A stretch of DNA of 64,000 bases, from assembly GCA_964406795.1 (NCBI GenBank), contig CAYOTA010000002.1, positions 17,549 through 81,548 on the forward strand, in the 5' to 3' direction. The stretch is from an uncultured Gammaproteobacteria bacterium. Lineage in GTDB: Bacteria; Patescibacteriota; Microgenomatia; Levybacterales; GWA1-39-11. Every line of letters starts with the position of its first letter. Positions within the stretch are counted from its first letter, which is position 1. The notes under the pieces are model-generated. The model was not told the DNA's origin, did not search any database, and saw only the letters and a program-made list of their open reading frames with translations. Positions 771-6,213 of this stretch are shown here, one piece after another. Made by a program: the position numbers and the translations under genes.

Positions 771-1394
771 TCAAAGTCCTCTCACAACGGCCGGTGGTTT
801 TTGAATAATCCGCAAACGTTCCGTAGGACTCATTTGCTGCATCCGTCTTAAGTGATTTCGCCCATCAATGGGATATTGACTTCTGTGAGCGCCTACCGCC
901 CGTCTTTTTGATCTCATTGTGTGCCGAATATCTACTTCTTGTGCCGGAATCATAGTTTGGTCAGGAATAGGAATAAAATATGGCTCCCACAATTCCTTTT
1001 CTTGCCTACTCATAGATCTCCAGGTTAAAAATTTTGCTTGTTCTGATCTGCTAAAAAGTACACTTGAAACTCTGGATGCTGTCATATGATCTGGGTGTCC
1101 AGTGTATCCATGAAAGTCAAAACTAACTATGTTATCGAATGCATGTATATCCACATACTTTCCTATTTGATCAACTGCAGGTTGTATTTCATTTTCAGTG
1201 AACTTCCCATCTTCAAAATTTAAGAATATAGTTTCTCCAATTCCCAATACTTTACTTGCTTGAAGTTCCTCACCTTTTCTTCTTCCTTGGTCTGTTAAGA
1301 TTACGGAAGTTGTAGAGCTTCCTGCCGCGTGTAAAAGCTTGGTATATCCACCAATTCCAATTGCTATGTCGTCACAATGGGCAAAAACCAGCAA
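771..1394 (-). CDS. PIG-L / LmbE family N-acetylglucosaminyl deacetylase. Start uncertain: longest ORF reaches 1559, but PIG-L proteins begin just before the AHxDD motif, so a TTG near 1394 is more plausible.
   Basis: LLVFAHCDDIAIGIGG (AHPDD-like motif) and HPDHMTA (second His motif) of the LmbE/PIG-L fold. Confidence 0.65.
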   Translation of the reverse strand: MLVFAHCDDIAIGIGGYTKLLHAAGSSTTSVILTDQGRRKGEELQASKVLGIGETIFLNFEDGKFTENEIQPAVDQIGKYVDIHAFDNIVSFDFHGYTGHPDHMTASRVSSVLFSRSEQAKFLTWRSMSRQEKELWEPYFIPIPDQTMIPAQEVDIRHTMRSKRRAVGAHRSQYPIDGRNHLRRMQQMSPTERLRIIQKPPAVVRGL

Positions 1395-1521
1395 ATTTTT
1401 TGCTGGAATTGGCCCCGCGTACAGTCCCGCAGTAATTGCCTTTCTGTTTCTCGAGCGTAATATTGTGTTTCTATTTTTCCCATAATCCTTCGATACCCTC
1501 AGGTTTGTGTCATTTAGACAT

Positions 1522-1543
1522 AAAAAAACCTCCCAGTGGGAGG
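1522..1543 (-). terminator. Intrinsic terminator (minus strand): CCTCCCACTGGGAGG hairpin followed by T7
   Basis: Plus strand AAAAAAACCTCCCAGTGGGAGG. Member of a repeated terminator family (see 3057, 3554, 4410). Confidence 0.6.
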
Positions 1544-1658
1544 CTGTTTGTCTACACAAAAGACAACCTCCTAGGAGATTTTTGTGCAGCGAGTATTTTT
1601 TACAAATTTCATATGTGGCTTAGTATATACCGTTTTTATTTTTCTTGTCAAGGATTAT

Positions 1659-1916
1659 TTAACGTTTTGGTGTGGGAGTGGGACTGACAAATGGAAGAAG
1701 CTCAACATCTTTTTGCTTTGTGTTTTGATCAATTTCGGCAATGAAGCTTCCAATAATAGGAATAAAGTCTGATTTTGAAACTATAAATCCTAAAACTGCT
1801 ATAAATAAAATTGCGCCAAAGGCTGTTCCCAGACCCCAAAAAAGCCCTCCAATGAAATTATTTAAGATCATTTGCTTTTTACTGACTGGTCGAGTTACTT
1901 TTTCATGTGGCTGCAT
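1659..1916 (-). CDS. Small membrane protein (85 aa), uncharacterised
   Basis: ORF with hydrophobic core GGLFWGLGTAFGAILFIAVLGFIV. Followed by its own hairpin terminator. Confidence 0.5.
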   Translation of the reverse strand: MQPHEKVTRPVSKKQMILNNFIGGLFWGLGTAFGAILFIAVLGFIVSKSDFIPIIGSFIAEIDQNTKQKDVELLPFVSPTPTPKR

Positions 1917-1997
1917 ACCTATAGTGTAGCAGAAAAAATGTAAGAAGAACGTGTGAGCCTAAAAGTAAAACATGATTTTTTAATAGTGCGCGCACTT

Positions 1998-2047
1998 GGG
2001 ATTGATACCCGTGACCTCATTCAATGTCAATGAAGTATCTTCTACCC
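1998..2047 (-). pseudogene. Partial, diverged duplicate of the tRNA-Val(GAC) anticodon-arm to T-arm segment
   Basis: Minus strand ...CTTCATTGACATTGAATGAGGTCACGGGTATCAATCCC. Shares the exact 13-mer TCATTGACATTGA and the GAGG.CAC...T-arm pattern with the adjacent tRNA-Val. No D-arm and no acceptor pairing. Confidence 0.4.
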
Positions 2048-2060
2048 TTCCTTAAATTTG

Positions 2061-2137
2061 TGGTGGACCTGACAGAACTCGAATCTGTGGCCTCGTCAAT
2101 GTCAATGACGCGCTCTAACCAACTGAGCTACAGGTCC
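2061..2137 (-). tRNA. tRNA-Val (anticodon GAC), CCA encoded
   Basis: GGACCTGTAGCTCAGTTGGTTAGAGCGCGTCATTGACATTGACGAGGCCACAGATTCGAGTTCTGTCAGGTCCACCA. Cloverleaf with 7-bp acceptor, D-arm GCTC/GAGC, anticodon loop TTGACAT, T-loop TTCGAGT. Confidence 0.85.
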
Positions 2138-2293
2138 GCAATTTTAAAGTGGCTTTTGCGACTGAGCCACGTTGCAATTTTAACAAACCGTAGCTTATTA
2201 CACAATTAACCAAGGAGACGCATTGTAACCAACCCAGGCAAAATATGCGCTTGTGCGCGGTATGGGTGCACTACATACCGCGCCATGCCTAAG

Positions 2294-2959
2294 TTATTTT
2301 CCCCTTGGAACACGGGCTACAATAGTTACCGGATTATTCGGTGTTATAATTTCTCCTTGTCTATTAAAATGCAGCGGCGAGAATGCTGTCACTCCATTTC
2401 TTAAATGTTTTTCAGGAACGGTACCTGTAGTAATTCCAGCGTCTACTTTGCCTTCCTTAACATCTAGTACTAACTGACTTTTAGTCAGATGGGTATCTTC
2501 TACTGTTACTCTGAAATCTCTGAAATGTTCTTTTCCCAAAAGATTAACAACGTCAACTCCATTCAACTCTGACAAAGCAATTCTAGTAGGATCTTTTCTT
2601 CTGGATTCAGGTGTAGATATTTCTACAAAATGTCTAATTCCTGTTGCGTTTGCCATATGGATGTTTGTGGAGTCTATTGTTAAAGGTCTTACTTGTGTTC
2701 TTTCAGGAATTGATGCATGTTTTCTTTTTAGTTCAGTTAATTTATCCTTACTTCTTCCTGTTTCTTTTTCATGTAACTTTCTCCTTTGGGCCGGTGTAAG
2801 CGTCCTTTCTGCCTTGGGAGTTTTGCCGGCTTCTTTTTCAGCCTTTGCTTTCTTTTCCATCCTTTTTTTCAAAATAAGTTCTGCATCTTCTGTATGCATG
2901 TAAGGCATTAAATTTAATCTGGCTATTTCACCAGGTATGTCTAATATTTCTTTACTCAT
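2294..2959 (-). CDS. Hypothetical protein (221 aa), Lys/Glu-rich N-terminus
   Basis: Long ORF. The AGGTG of ...GATCGGAGGTGAATTATTATG lies 9 nt upstream of the start. Terminator downstream. Confidence 0.6.
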   Translation of the reverse strand: MSKEILDIPGEIARLNLMPYMHTEDAELILKKRMEKKAKAEKEAGKTPKAERTLTPAQRRKLHEKETGRSKDKLTELKRKHASIPERTQVRPLTIDSTNIHMANATGIRHFVEISTPESRRKDPTRIALSELNGVDVVNLLGKEHFRDFRVTVEDTHLTKSQLVLDVKEGKVDAGITTGTVPEKHLRNGVTAFSPLHFNRQGEIITPNNPVTIVARVPRGK

Positions 2960-3056
2960 AATAATTCACCTCCGATCATTTTTCCGTCAGACGGAAATAA
3001 AATGAAGAAAAATGATTGATCCTGAAGGCCGAGGCCTGAAGGACAACATTTTCCCA

Positions 3057-3081
3057 CAAAAAAAACCTCCCCTTAGGGAGG
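3057..3081 (-). terminator. Intrinsic terminator (minus): CCTCCCTAAGGGGAGG + T8
   Basis: Plus strand CAAAAAAAACCTCCCCTTAGGGAGG. Confidence 0.6.
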
Positions 3082-3209
3082 TCGTGGTGCTGTCATTCTG
3101 GCACTACATTACCTCCCGGATAGGGGGTGTAAAGTAATACCAAAAAGCGTTTATTTGCATAGTAACCATACTAACACAAAATAAACGCTCTTTGCAATAA
3201 GTTTTCCAA

Positions 3210-3479
3210 TTATTTCCCTGGAGCTTTCCAAACTACTCCCTCTTTCGGTAAAGAGGCAACAATTTTTCTGTCAACTTCAGTTAGCCGTTCTGGAAACGCA
3301 GTTTGAACTTTAGGAGCATTTACTCCTTTTGGCTCAGATACTGATGCGAATCCTCTTACTTCTCTATCTTCAGGAAAGATAGAAGCTATATTATTAGGCA
3401 TAACTCTAAATTTATTAAAATCATTACTCGCTCCATCTGCTCTAAAACTACTTCCATCAAATTTTGTTATTTCGCTCAT
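3210..3479 (-). CDS. Hypothetical small protein (~90 aa). True start is the internal ATG with a GGAGGTG RBS; the ORF-track start at 3584 lies inside the upstream terminator and is discounted.
   Basis: AAAGGAGGTGATTATAATATGAGCGAAATAACA... gives MSEITKFDGSSFRADG... Confidence 0.55.
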   Translation of the reverse strand: MSEITKFDGSSFRADGASNDFNKFRVMPNNIASIFPEDREVRGFASVSEPKGVNAPKVQTAFPERLTEVDRKIVASLPKEGVVWKAPGK

Positions 3480-3482
3480 ATT

Positions 3483-3553
3483 ATAATCACCTCCTTTCAA
3501 ATCACTTCGATAAATCTCAGTGCCACGCTTGAGGTTTACCTCAAATTTTGGCA
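3483..3553 (-). promoter_or_regulatory. Conserved leader/promoter module copy B (GTGCCAAAATTTGA-hairpin-CGTGGCACTGAGATTTATCGAAGTG)
   Basis: Near-identical module at 4342-4409. Shared CTGAGATTTATCGAAGT. The hairpin differs between copies with compensating changes (GAGGTAAACCTC vs TCCCGATTTAATCGGGA). Confidence 0.5.
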
Positions 3554-3578
3554 CAAAAAAACCTCCCTTTTGGGGAGG
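3554..3578 (-). terminator. Intrinsic terminator (minus): CCTCCCCAAAAGGGAGG + T7
   Basis: Plus CAAAAAAACCTCCCTTTTGGGGAGG. A second hairpin (CTTACCGGTTGGTAAG, 3605-3620) lies between this and the stop of the upstream gene. Confidence 0.6.
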
Positions 3579-3697
3579 TCGCATTTTTCCACGAAAACCT
3601 CCCCTTACCGGTTGGTAAGAAGAAGGTTAGGTAAAATTACATTAATTTTCGCGTTCATAAAACATATATTATCAAGTGAAGTTAATTGTGTCAAGTA

Positions 3698-4339
3698 TTA
3701 AGCAACGGCGTGTGCTACGCCTGGCATCATATAATTGCCCAAAGTTCTCACATGACCATCAGGTGTTATCGGGATAATCCCAGCTGAGTAAAGTGATCGC
3801 ACCATTTTTCCCATTTGTGAGCTAGGTTCTAAAGGGGTATCTAAATTTGGCAAGTTATCCAGGAGTGCCACCGACCAATCACCTTCACTCATTTTGGCTA
3901 TATGTCCGGAGCTTAACTTCATGCCACCCTGCACTCGTTCCCTATAATCAATTGAATTATTTAGATATGTGTGGAGCTTTGCAATTTTGTTTGTTGGATC
4001 TATTTTACCCCATTCTATAATTAGTTTTCTACCTGTAGTGTCTAGGGTAAAATATGCAGAAACAGGTCTTTCAAATGCCATCTCTGGCTCGTGCATAGCC
4101 GTATTGTTATTTAAGCTAAAGACAAGCGTTCTTCTTAAGTATGCAGCTCGTGCCAGATCTGGACTTATTAATGCATCGTTCACCGCAGCAAGTTCCACCT
4201 GACGTACCTCATCAAGTAAATGTGGCCTCATGGGGACAATTGCCCTTCCAATAGTTACCCCGTCAACAGATTCAGTTGAAATAATTGGTCGTAACCGTCT
4301 TTGTACTTCTATATGTGGTTTTTCAAATTCTAAGTTCAT
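3698..4339 (-). CDS. Hypothetical protein (213 aa), no recognisable family
   Basis: Clean ORF between a conserved leader (upstream) and terminator hairpins (downstream). Confidence 0.6.
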   Translation of the reverse strand: MNLEFEKPHIEVQRRLRPIISTESVDGVTIGRAIVPMRPHLLDEVRQVELAAVNDALISPDLARAAYLRRTLVFSLNNNTAMHEPEMAFERPVSAYFTLDTTGRKLIIEWGKIDPTNKIAKLHTYLNNSIDYRERVQGGMKLSSGHIAKMSEGDWSVALLDNLPNLDTPLEPSSQMGKMVRSLYSAGIIPITPDGHVRTLGNYMMPGVAHAVA

Positions 4340-4341
4340 AT

Positions 4342-4409
4342 GTTTTTAAATACTTCGATAAATCTCAGCACCACGTTTTCTCCCGATTAAATCGGGATCA
4401 AATTTGGCA
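4342..4409 (-). promoter_or_regulatory. Conserved leader/promoter module copy A (GTGCCAAATTTGA-TCCCGATTTAATCGGGA-GAAAACGTGGTGCTGAGATTTATCGAAGTATTTAAAAACAT-ATG)
   Basis: See copy B. No Shine-Dalgarno in this copy; the motif ends 13 nt before the ATG. Confidence 0.5.
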
Positions 4410-4434
4410 CAAAAAAACCTCCCAACATGGGAGG
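4410..4434 (-). terminator. Intrinsic terminator (minus): CCTCCCATGTTGGGAGG + T7
   Basis: Plus CAAAAAAACCTCCCAACATGGGAGG. Confidence 0.6.
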
Positions 4435-4548
4435 TTTGCAAAATAGCATTAAGCCTCCCGGGTTAGGAAGTAATAATGACTAGTGTGTTAGAAAAGATTC
4501 TCACGATTAAAATATTTTACACTAATTAAGCGTCCAGTCAAGAGGATG

Positions 4549-5178
4549 TTAGCCGGTTTGAGTTTGCACTGTGCGCTCGTTATTGAGCGTAAATGAGGTA
4601 CCATGTTTTTTTGCCATAGATTTATATTGCTGTTGCTGTTTCTTGGATTTTTTAGTTTGCAGCCATGAATTTCCTTCTTCCATTTTAATTCTTGCAGACC
4701 TCAAAAGAGTCAAAATAAAAGTAAAAAATGTTTCATGATATTTACCTGCATTGACTATTTTTTGCTCAGCGTTTACTGACTTAAAGGTTGTTTGTAGTTC
4801 AGCGCTTACAGACATTAACTTTCTAATCTCCATTCTAATGTCTTCCACTTTACGCTGGGTTTCAGCATCTCTTTGCATTCCAGGCGCTATGTCTGCGTTT
4901 TTAACAGTTCTGAAATACTCCATGTGAGCCTCAGTAACCTGTTTTTTTTCTTCCTTGGGTTGCTCTTTCTTTAATGACTGAGCCTCTCCAGGCTTCAGTT
5001 CATGTGCGTATGAGCCTGAAAGTTGTCCTATGATGTCTTTGCTTCCGCCACCCAAGAGATCTTTCCATAGGGAGTCAAGGCCGGCATTAGAAATATCGGA
5101 GATAGAGGCGTTAACGCTTGTGTGTTTAGCCTCAATTGATTCTTCGTGTAGCTTGTGTTTTACTGCCTTTTTTTGCAT
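4549..5178 (-). CDS. Hypothetical coiled-coil protein (209 aa), Lys/Gln-rich
   Basis: ORF. TATAAT-like element GAGGTATAAT 17 nt upstream of the ATG. Confidence 0.55.
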   Translation of the reverse strand: MQKKAVKHKLHEESIEAKHTSVNASISDISNAGLDSLWKDLLGGGSKDIIGQLSGSYAHELKPGEAQSLKKEQPKEEKKQVTEAHMEYFRTVKNADIAPGMQRDAETQRKVEDIRMEIRKLMSVSAELQTTFKSVNAEQKIVNAGKYHETFFTFILTLLRSARIKMEEGNSWLQTKKSKKQQQQYKSMAKKHGTSFTLNNERTVQTQTG

Positions 5179-5382
5179 ATGTTGTGCTGGGGCATATTAT
5201 ACCTCAAATGCACAACCGATTCAAACTGCGCAGTAATACCCCGCAGTTTTTTAACGGCAAAATACAATATAACTATATTTTGAATATGTTGTCAAGAATG
5301 GAAAAATAGCTAGCCGTACTTAAATTTTAGCCAGGAAATCGAGGGTTTTTTGCTGCCTAATAGTGAAGCTAAAGACAGTTAC

Positions 5383-6213
5383 TTATATCTTGGCTAAGAA
5401 ATCTAATGTTTTTTGCTGTCTTATAATGCTTGCTAAAAAATATGGATTTTGAAGTAACTGCTGTTTTTGGTTTTCATCCTGAATTCCCTGTAAAGCCTCA
5501 TCTATGTCTGCTTTTTCAACACTAATGTTTTCAGTATCAGCAATTTTTCGGAGTACAAATTCTAGTGCTAAGTCTTTTTTAGCACGTGATTCAGCCTCAG
5601 TTTTCATGTCTTCTGCTGTTTTTCCTCTGGAGCTCAGATATTGTTCAAGTGTTAATCCTAGTGATTTAAGCTCATCCAGTGTTTGAGATAACAGTCTTTG
5701 GGCTTCTTGTTCATATAGAACTTTTGGAATTTCTACTTTACTTGAATTACCTACTGCATCCAATATGTCATTTACGTTAGGCTTAACATCTTCTCTTCCT
5801 GGAACGGTAATTTTGGATTTAGCAGTTATTTGAGAAACAGCATCTTTATAATTACCAAGTGTTACTTCTGGAGCCTCACAAAGTTCTGCTGTGAACACTA
5901 AATCTGTACCGTCTTCAAATGTTTCTACATGTACGCGGGGAGTTATAATTGGGGTTATGTTTTGTTCTTTTACAGCTTCGTTATATGCTTTGCCCAAAAC
6001 GTCTTTTAAAACTTCTTCCTGAACTACTTCTTTTTTCAAATGCGGCTCGGCAATGTTACTTGGCGCAACACCTTTTCTAAATCCGGGGATAGTAATTTGC
6101 TTCACTAACTCCCCTACTACTTTCGTGCGTGCATCTTCCACTGTCTTCCAAGGAACGGTAATTTTAAGGGTAATTGTTTTATCTTCTGCAATAGTTTTTT
6201 CAACCATAAGCAA
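5383..6213 (-). CDS. tig: Trigger factor, short form (N-terminal ribosome-binding and C-terminal chaperone domains, no PPIase domain)
   Basis: ITIPGFRKGVAPSNI matches the trigger-factor GFRKGKVP signature loop. 276 aa versus about 430 aa for full-length Tig. Confidence 0.8.
   Translation of the reverse strand: MLMVEKTIAEDKTITLKITVPWKTVEDARTKVVGELVKQITIPGFRKGVAPSNIAEPHLKKEVVQEEVLKDVLGKAYNEAVKEQNITPIITPRVHVETFEDGTDLVFTAELCEAPEVTLGNYKDAVSQITAKSKITVPGREDVKPNVNDILDAVGNSSKVEIPKVLYEQEAQRLLSQTLDELKSLGLTLEQYLSSRGKTAEDMKTEAESRAKKDLALEFVLRKIADTENISVEKADIDEALQGIQDENQKQQLLQNPYFLASIIRQQKTLDFLAKI

Follow-up and report, generated by a model that had tools for sequence, protein, structure and literature searches.

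The classical leu, ilv, thr, his and trp attenuators, as described by the Yanofsky model, have three alternative hairpins, regulatory codons in region 1, a leader-peptide stop codon beside region 2 and an intrinsic terminator. The Phe_leader family (the pheA attenuator with its leader peptide PheL) represents this type in Enterobacteria and Alteromonadales. The T-box leaders of Firmicutes, which control aminoacyl-tRNA synthetase and amino acid genes, sense uncharged tRNA by direct RNA–RNA contacts and contain no upstream open reading frame (uORF). Candidate Phyla Radiation (CPR) organisms largely lack amino acid biosynthesis, and in the literature that we searched we found no description of leader-peptide attenuation in this group. 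E. coli leader peptides are generally preceded by a Shine–Dalgarno (SD) sequence; in Deinococcus deserti 14 leaderless leader peptides have been predicted that abound in the amino acid to which the downstream gene relates, with start sites mapped experimentally (PMC4007540). Leaderless polycysteine attenuator short open reading frames (ORFs), likewise with mapped start sites, are reported for mycobacteria in a preprint (bioRxiv 10.1101/834739). Here we analysed a stretch of 64,000 nt (the window) from contig CAYOTA010000002.1 of an uncultured bacterium that is placed among the Patescibacteriota by GTDB. Four intergenic regions on its minus strand, termed modules A to D, are probably self-contained ribosome-mediated (leader-peptide) transcription attenuators, each serving the gene directly downstream. 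Judged from its sequence, the layout of each module is that of the trp/phe/leu/thr leader-peptide attenuators, and the modules are added members, and a compact variant, of a known mechanism.

The pattern CCTCCC-N3-5-GGGAGG-TTTT occurs at exactly four sites in the window, all on the minus strand (Table 1), with 0 expected in shuffled sequence. This bears out an earlier note on this DNA, made from the sequence alone, which had singled out four near-identical terminators. Under stricter criteria, namely a perfect stem of 6 bp or more with no fewer than four GC pairs and at least six T in eight positions, the 64 kb yielded only five strong intrinsic terminators, the CCTCCC/GGGAGG hairpins being four of them. 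Their cores are near-identical among the modules, with perfect GC-rich stems of 6–9 bp followed by U7–8, and each is situated between a uORF and a structural gene. The earlier note had put the hairpins ‘a few dozen nt’ after a gene; the measured gap from the upstream stop codon is in fact 113–126 nt, and it holds a promoter and a small ORF. Rather than just closing the upstream gene, the terminator forms part of the 5′ leader of the gene that follows. The genes directly 3′ of the modules encode a 213-aa protein (A), a 90-aa protein (B), a 221-aa protein (C) and a PIG-L family deacetylase (D). Of the five genes that had been thought to be punctuated, those for the 213-aa, 90-aa and 221-aa proteins do have modules; the DUF5660 (209-aa) and DUF5665 (85-aa) genes have none of their own, and the PIG-L gene does. 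The suggestion of a selected RNA structure, or promoter plus attenuator unit, was right in that an attenuator is present, but the unit had been drawn in the wrong place and order: promoter, uORF and antiterminator all lie upstream of the terminator.

The promoters of modules A, B and D are of the sigma-70 type, score 10–11/12 and directly follow the upstream stop codons. All four uORFs are 13–18 codons long and start 7–9 nt past the −10 box. Folding of sub-segments gave three mutually exclusive hairpins of similar strength per leader: 1:2, the uORF end paired with the first GGGAGG (−5.2 to −17.6 kcal/mol); 2:3, the antiterminator (−13.6 to −18.8 kcal/mol); and 3:4, the terminator (−12.2 to −14.4 kcal/mol). 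The uORF stop codons fall between ∼ 6 nt before the GGGAGG core of region 2 and 11 nt after the start of that core. By the criterion of a codon run, modules C (F-W-Y-Y-F, that is two F, one W and two Y) and B (L-L-L plus one further Leu) are clear, A (I-I plus V/L, GTG start) is weak and D has none. The uORFs, spacers and promoters differ from module to module.

Table 1. Coordinates of the features of modules A–D and of the genes downstream of them (positions in the window).
Feature	Coordinates	Strand	Description
CCTCCC-N3-5-GGGAGG-TTTT, four sites	1525–1543, 3062–3081, 3558–3578, 4414–4434	minus	
Module A promoter	4514–4541	minus	TTGACT-16-TAAAAT, TG extension; score 10/12; begins 8 nt past DUF5660 gene stop
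Module A uORF	4463–4504	minus	VRIFSNTLVIITS-stop; GTG start 9 nt past −10 box; Ile/branched-chain, weakest of the four
Module A switch	4411–4471	minus	Region 1 ACTTCC 4466–4471; region 2 CGGGAGG 4454–4460; region 3 CCTCCCA 4428–4434; region 4 TGGGAGG + U7 4411–4424; 1:2 −9.7, 2:3 −13.6, 3:4 −14.2 kcal/mol
Post-terminator element, copy A	4352–4410	minus	GTGCCA...hairpin...TGGTGC-TGAGATTTATCGAAGT; initial GTG opens 7-codon mini-ORF 4387–4410
213-aa gene	3698–4339	minus	No Pfam; small CPR family; under module A
Module B promoter	3666–3694	minus	TTGACA-17-TAATAT, TG-extended; begins 4 nt past 213-aa gene stop
Module B uORF	3605–3658	minus	MNAKINVILPNLLLTNR-stop; ATG 7 nt past −10 box; Leu run CUU CUU CUU within region 1
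Module B switch	3555–3628	minus	Region 1 3614–3628; region 2 3596–3609; region 3 3572–3580; region 4 + U7 3555–3567; 1:2 −17.6, 2:3 −18.6, 3:4 −13.3 kcal/mol
Post-terminator element, copy B	3504–3554	minus	GTG at 3554 in frame with 90-aa gene
90-aa gene (MSEITKF...)	3210–3479	minus	Under module B
Module C promoter	3168–3197	minus	TTGCAA-18-TAGTAT; score 8/12, weaker; conserved in relative L007
Module C uORF	3104–3160	minus	MQINAFWYYFTPPIREVM-stop; ATG 7 nt past −10 box; five aromatic codons in a row, UUU UGG UAU UAC UUU
Module C switch	3058–3141	minus	Region 1 3123–3141; region 2 3100–3117; region 3 3076–3083; region 4 + U8 3058–3072; 2:3 −18.8, 3:4 −14.4 kcal/mol
Module C read-through 5′ UTR	2956–3057	minus	Two stable hairpins (−33.2 kcal/mol, z −3.8); in the second, the 221-aa gene SD is paired
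221-aa gene	2294–2959	minus	Orphan; under module C
Module D promoter	1622–1651	minus	TTGACA-18-TATACT; score 11/12; begins 8 nt past DUF5665 gene stop
Module D uORF	1571–1612	minus	MKFVKNTRCTKIS-stop; ATG 9 nt past −10 box; no clear codon run, one Cys
Module D switch	1522–1579	minus	Region 1 1574–1579; region 2 1562–1571; region 3 1538–1552; region 4 + U7 1522–1534; 1:2 −5.2, 2:3 −16.4, 3:4 −12.2 kcal/mol
Module D read-through UTR	1484–1521	minus	Holds short motif CTGAGGGTATCGAAGG at 1488–1503
PIG-L family deacetylase gene	771–1483	minus	Under module D; ATG at 1483 out of PIG-L frame

In the mechanism that we propose, transcription would begin at the sigma-70-type promoter just past the upstream stop codon, and the transcript would open, essentially without a 5′ untranslated region (UTR), on the uORF. 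The end of the uORF would constitute region 1 and could pair with GGGAGG (region 2); region 2 could alternatively pair with CCUCCC (region 3), and region 3 with the second GGGAGG (region 4), which together with U7–8 would give the intrinsic terminator. When charged tRNA is plentiful, a ribosome at the uORF stop codon, within ∼ 12 nt of region 2, would mask region 2, 3:4 would form and transcription would stop ∼ 100 nt into the leader. Were the leader not translated, as in read-through from the upstream gene, 1:2 and 3:4 would form and termination would again result. A ribosome stalled on hungry codons in region 1 would allow 2:3 to form, the polymerase would read through and the gene would be expressed. 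On their codon content, module C should sense aromatic amino acids and module B should sense Leu. Module A resembles Ile-type leaders (..IIT..), a weak indication that it responds to Ile or branched-chain amino acids. Module D possibly senses Cys, the hint coming from the CCC leader of a PIG-L gene in a Gottesmanbacteria metagenome-assembled genome (MAG; L114). All the features of the classical attenuators listed above are common to these leaders; however, the leaders in the window are shorter, their uORFs are apparently leaderless, and the controlled genes are lineage-specific and of unknown function. In the D. deserti and mycobacterial systems the start of the uORF likewise coincides with the transcription start; here, in other phyla, this is deduced from the spacing between −10 box and ATG.

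The resemblance to Phe_leader (Rfam RF01859) was detectable at a permissive threshold, at which all four modules aligned full-length (C, 35.0 bits, E = 0.003; B, 25.2; A, 22.1; D, 20.3) and the AUG of the model fell on the uORF AUG in both alignments shown (C and B). With 20–35 bits the modules lie below the 55-bit gathering threshold and are not members of the family by score; at gathering thresholds Rfam returned only tRNAs from the window. Region 2 (GGGAGG), region 3 (CCUCCC) and the U-run terminator are alike in both, as is the uORF end ...F-T-(F/P)-stop, whose last codons (ACC YYC CC) make up region 1. However, aromatic codons characterize module C alone, as a mixture of F, W and Y, and the genes downstream in the window are not pheA. 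For a covariance model (R1) we used 87 leaders from other genomes and excluded the window as well as its closest relative. Run over the 64 kb with filters off, it found exactly four sites, namely C (53.8 bits), B (48.1), A (42.2) and D (31.5); the next match scored 19.6 bits and corresponds to one of the terminators read on the opposite strand.

In metagenomic relatives the locus tig – DUF5660 – 213-aa family – ... – DUF5665 – ... – thrS keeps its gene order, and promoter–uORF–hairpin–terminator units are found there too, with the terminator usually 0–25 nt before the start codon. Compared with L007, the closest relative, leaders B and C show ∼ 85–100% identity, against only 64% for the 213-aa protein, and the module B switch is near-identical. 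The higher conservation of these leaders than of the protein indicates purifying selection on the leaders. Wherever a leader could be recovered for a gene of the 213-aa family (seven other loci and module A of the window), the uORF was rich in Leu, Ile and Val; a second metagenome scan for the family yielded only five loci, three of them new. In two loci (L130 and L132) the terminator has the stem CCCGCC/GGCGGG and, in step with it, region 2 reads GGGCGGGAGG, a covariation that does not stem from any search pattern.

The search pattern GGGAGG-N15-45-ACCTCCC-N3-8-GGGAGGTTTTTT (region 2, region 3, region 4) gave more than 118 matches in genome contigs and none in viral contigs. Within the Patescibacteria it matched Collier-, Davies-, Woese-, Roizman-, Curtiss-, Levyi-, Gottesman-, Shapiro- and Dojkabacteria as well as Saccharibacteria; a compact predicted attenuator variant, apparently leaderless and SD-coupled, is widespread in this group. 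In Alteromonas, Rheinheimera and Alkalimonas the same pattern recovered leaders with a Phe-rich peptide (e.g. MKSDIQQVAAFFFAFIPFT-stop) upstream of proteins that read like PheA, and in Chloroflexi Leu/Val/Ile leaders before acetolactate-synthase-like proteins, in both cases judged by eye from the N-terminus with no domain search. In the CPR-like subset the uORF ends beside region 2 in 86 of 89 leaders, against 43% in shuffles, and one amino acid fills at least four of seven consecutive codons in 51%, against 8% in shuffles. The uORF stop codons of 88 such leaders cluster at −12 to −1 and +6 to +23 relative to region 2. Among matches with a good promoter, from all groups, the ATG lies 5–11 nt past the −10 box in 80 of 99 (mode 6–7), and for this reason the uORFs appear to be leaderless.

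The strongest argument for the uORFs as functional sensors, and one independent of the search pattern, is the concordance in relatives between the codon run of a predicted leader and the gene that follows it. Cys runs precede PALP (CysK-like) genes (CCC and CC in L011 and L087), a Cys_Met_Meta_PP gene (CC, L069) and the PIG-L gene of L114 mentioned above. A run of SSSSS precedes a SerB–SerA fusion (L032), Thr codons precede ThrRS (L035), HH.H precedes HisRS (L056) and MM.MM precedes a MetE-type gene (L128). Aromatic runs stand before prephenate dehydratase (PDT; FFYFFF, L082) and 3-dehydroquinate synthase (AroB; WFYFYF, L118), and QNQQNN stands before GatC (L042). Leu-rich leaders are found before a peptidase S51 gene (L066) and, ending in ...NLLLVLFMGAFWGGLFR-stop, directly upstream of a RelA/SpoT homologue with HD_4, RelA_SpoT and TGS domains (L098, 3175–4732); the latter would tie (p)ppGpp metabolism to the charging of Leu-tRNA. 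The concordance is a matter of direct observation, as are the sequence anatomy, the alternative pairings and the family resemblance. At L001 (11160–12693) an F-rich leader (MNTSRFFSFYFTSQTGR-stop) with terminator follows infC-rpmI-rplT, and the downstream gene is cut off; we take this arrangement to mirror the E. coli order thrS-infC-rpmI-rplT-pheM-pheST.

A second feature of the CPR-like leaders is an ATG or GTG right at the end of the U-run, 6–9 nt past the GGAGG of region 4. It is present in 48 of 92 leaders (background 9.8%), whereas only 1 of 31 gammaproteobacterial leaders has it, a further difference from Phe_leader. This start codon opens the main ORF in 17 cases and a mini-ORF of 2–33 codons in 31, several of which stop within the real SD (AGG AGG TGA) or overlap the main ATG. 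All four modules have such a codon, GTG at 4410 (A), 3554 (B, in frame with the 90-aa gene) and 3057 (C) and ATG at 1521 (D). In module C it opens a 33-codon mini-ORF whose TGA overlaps the ATG of the 221-aa gene at 2959, and translating this mini-ORF could open the hairpin that pairs with the SD of that gene. From its position, region 4 resembles an SD sequence that the terminator would conceal and the antiterminated form would lay open, with translation relayed to the main gene; this double use would explain why all stems are CCUCCC/GGGAGG.

Downstream of the terminators of modules A and B lies the element that the earlier note had described as a conserved leader of ∼ 70 nt. Both copies, each of ∼ 55 nt, are indeed there (Table 1), sharing GTGCCAAA(A)TTTGA and the exact 17-mer CTGAGATTTATCGAAGT (two matches in the window, 0.19 expected), and the short version of the motif was likewise found, in the read-through UTR of module D; the degenerate copy claimed before the 2959 start is too weak to call. 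Both copies fold into an outer stem, GUGCCA/UGG(C/U)(A/G)C, round an unrelated inner hairpin (−19.7 and −19.2 kcal/mol, z −3.4 and −2.9). The inner hairpins are wholly different sequences between near-identical flanks and could not be aligned by MAFFT. What had been taken for compensatory changes is a replacement between two paralogous copies (n = 2), not graded covariation. Nor did the proposed promoter or leader role find support: no promoter-like site was seen in the element, and the promoter and regulatory leader lie upstream of the terminator. The further copies for which a search had been proposed were not found, either in the window (17-mer with up to three mismatches, and blastn-short), in 128 loci (blastn-short) or in the JGI metagenomes (exact 22-mer), and the element matched no Rfam family. 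At the orthologous sites of L007 the element is missing and SD and start codon follow the terminator directly; the other syntenic relatives examined lack it too. The insertions are flanked by short direct repeats (ATTTGA, GGAAAATG and TTATG). Several readings of the element were discarded. Its two full copies and the single partial one all lie within this cluster and have no terminal inverted repeats, which does not fit a dispersed repeat or miniature inverted-repeat transposable element. As a promoter it offers no sigma-70-like site, and TGGCAC-N5-TTTAT, picked out by eye, lacks the −12 GC of sigma-54 promoters. A hammerhead-like reading of CUGAGA...GAAG failed because the core does not fit and no ribozyme family matched. 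In our view the element arose by insertion or duplication in this lineage, lies in the read-through 5′ UTR outside the switch and has kept a stable hairpin. With low confidence, we suggest that its hairpin, together with the start codon abutting the U-run, passes ribosomes loaded on the freed region 4 (SD-like GGGAGG) to the real start codon.

Several points weigh against leader-peptide attenuation at this locus. The module A uORF has a GTG start and only two Ile codons; that of module D has no codon run and a single Cys codon, and its 1:2 hairpin is weak (−5.2 kcal/mol). All four modules score under the gathering cut-off of Phe_leader. Pairing beyond the fixed GGGAGG/CCTCCC cores shows no significant covariation across the pattern-derived set, and thus most of what supports 2:3 there follows from the search pattern itself. 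The genes controlled in the window have no known link to amino acid metabolism, and attenuation presupposes coupling of polymerase and ribosome in CPR organisms. Finally, we infer the transcription start sites, the translation of the uORFs and the amino acid response, and likewise every functional step.

One alternative, in line with the earlier note, is that the hairpins are ordinary terminators of the upstream genes and that the next gene has the ∼ 70-nt element as its functional leader, either promoter or structured regulatory RNA. In its favour, the hairpins do have the form of genuine terminators and lie downstream of genes, a role against upstream read-through is partly compatible with attenuators, and the post-terminator hairpins are stable, with a 17-mer identical in two copies. 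However, strong promoters and uORFs lie between the upstream stop codon and the terminator, and the element, which has neither promoter-like site nor further copies nor Rfam match, is absent in relatives that keep both terminator and gene; we consider this explanation quite improbable. It is also unlikely, in our estimate, that the promoter-to-terminator units are stand-alone genes for trans-acting small RNAs (sRNAs) of ∼ 100 nt, or that the terminated leaders have such a second life. A promoter, ∼ 100 nt and a terminator are the anatomy of an sRNA gene too, and an attenuator-derived sRNA is known in rnTrpL of Sinorhizobium (PMC6614838). Moreover, CAGCACCACG in the antiterminator spacer of the module C leader (∼ 3084–3093) is the exact reverse complement of CGTGGTGCTG in copy A of the post-terminator element (∼ 4367–4376), and in principle the terminated C leader could pair there with the 5′ UTR of A and, imperfectly, of B, although the match may be due to chance. 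However, the units always lie directly upstream of a gene on the same strand, sequence outside the hairpin cores is not conserved between modules, and the match of uORF codon runs to downstream gene function in relatives would be needless for a trans-acting RNA.

Antitermination could also be governed by a ligand, tRNA or protein, as in a riboswitch, in a T-box or with an RNA-binding protein, the uORFs being incidental; this would draw on the same terminator/antiterminator alternatives, which are common to all these mechanisms. In its output, amino-acid-specific terminator read-through on tRNA charging, the T-box is a functional analogue of what we propose. However, riboswitch and T-box models gave no match in the window at gathering threshold, nor even at E up to 10 in 1350–5450, and the leaders are short and possess no conserved aptamer-like core. 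The frequency of uORFs beside region 2 (86 of 89), their fixed distance from the promoter and the function-matched codon runs likewise speak against incidental uORFs, and we judge this mechanism very unlikely. Least probable, to the point that we give it almost no credence, is that the modules arose by recent local duplication of a single intergenic region and have no function themselves. The near-identical terminator cores and the flanking sequence shared by A and B would fit such an origin. However, the comparative data contradict it: the modules have different uORFs, spacers and promoters, the same design recurs across many lineages of Patescibacteria, and in L007 leaders B and C are more conserved than the neighbouring proteins.

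Module C has two further peculiarities. A 10-nt inverted repeat, GCGTTTATTT/AAATAAACGC (∼ 3145–3187), brackets the −10 box and spans uORF codons 2–5; in L007 (1410–1455) both arms have changed together (T>C with A>G). The repeat could be a protein operator, or a hairpin of the read-through transcript that hides the uORF start. The segment 3094–3129, comprising hairpin 1:2 and GTGCCAGAATGA, resembles 3047–3082, a terminator followed by GTGCCAAAATTTGA as seen after other terminators, which fits an origin of attenuators by tandem duplication of the terminator hairpin.

The 213-aa family gave a confident AlphaFold model (predicted local distance difference test, pLDDT, 81) that had no match in the PDB, the 221-aa protein found only itself among 5.8 billion proteins, and no chorismate mutase or PDT domain is encoded downstream of the window modules. 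The ATG at 1483–1481 opens an ORF of only 40 codons (MGKIETQ...), and the PIG-L domain (...NLLVFAHCDD...) is in another frame; one base more in the GGGAAAAA run just after this ATG would join the frames (MGKNRNTILRS..., 1470–1490). The apparent 1-nt frameshift is either a homopolymer assembly error or real. Longest-ORF readings in the window (771–1559 and 3210–3584) and a gene call in L001 (8668–9417) run upstream through attenuator terminators, and annotated N-termini at such loci are probably too long. Such uORFs are easily missed in annotation, and gene callers extend downstream ORFs into the leaders. A 49-nt segment is repeated at an offset of 63 nt with 78% identity (5317–5365 and 5380–5428); the 3′ end of the trigger-factor gene falls within 5380–5428, of which 5317–5365 is a decayed duplicate in the intergenic region upstream of the DUF5660 gene. 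Several low-GC MAGs labelled ‘TPA_asm: uncultured Gammaproteobacteria’ (L033, L035, L076, L082, L098, L110 and others) look like Microgenomates and seem to be mislabelled. The leader of L076 matches the one in Roizmanbacteria L032, and at the DNA level the ThrRS genes of L110 and L035 share ∼ 70% identity with that of the window, as close as the gene of a Levyibacteriota MAG.

The main value of leader-peptide attenuators in these organisms, which depend on others for amino acids, is that they provide functional hints for uncharacterized CPR genes. The codon run of a leader hints at when the gene is wanted: the 221-aa orphan under aromatic shortage, the 90-aa protein and the 213-aa family when Leu or branched-chain amino acids run short, and PIG-L in a relative under Cys shortage. 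More tentatively, and with rather less than even confidence, we propose that Patescibacteria, or at least Microgenomates, use a large family of compact leaderless attenuators, with region 4 as SD, as their main sensor of amino acid starvation, wiring lineage-specific ‘dark-matter’ proteins into amino-acid-specific regulons. If this is true, transcription and translation would be gated together through region 4 and the start codon abutting the U-run. The regulons would take in the 213-aa family, the 90-aa and 221-aa proteins and many proteins of 60–120 aa, and the RelA/SpoT homologue (L098, whose Gammaproteobacteria label we doubt) and peptidases (L066 and L120) would belong to the same regulons. 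The leader codon run would then be a first functional handle on these genes.

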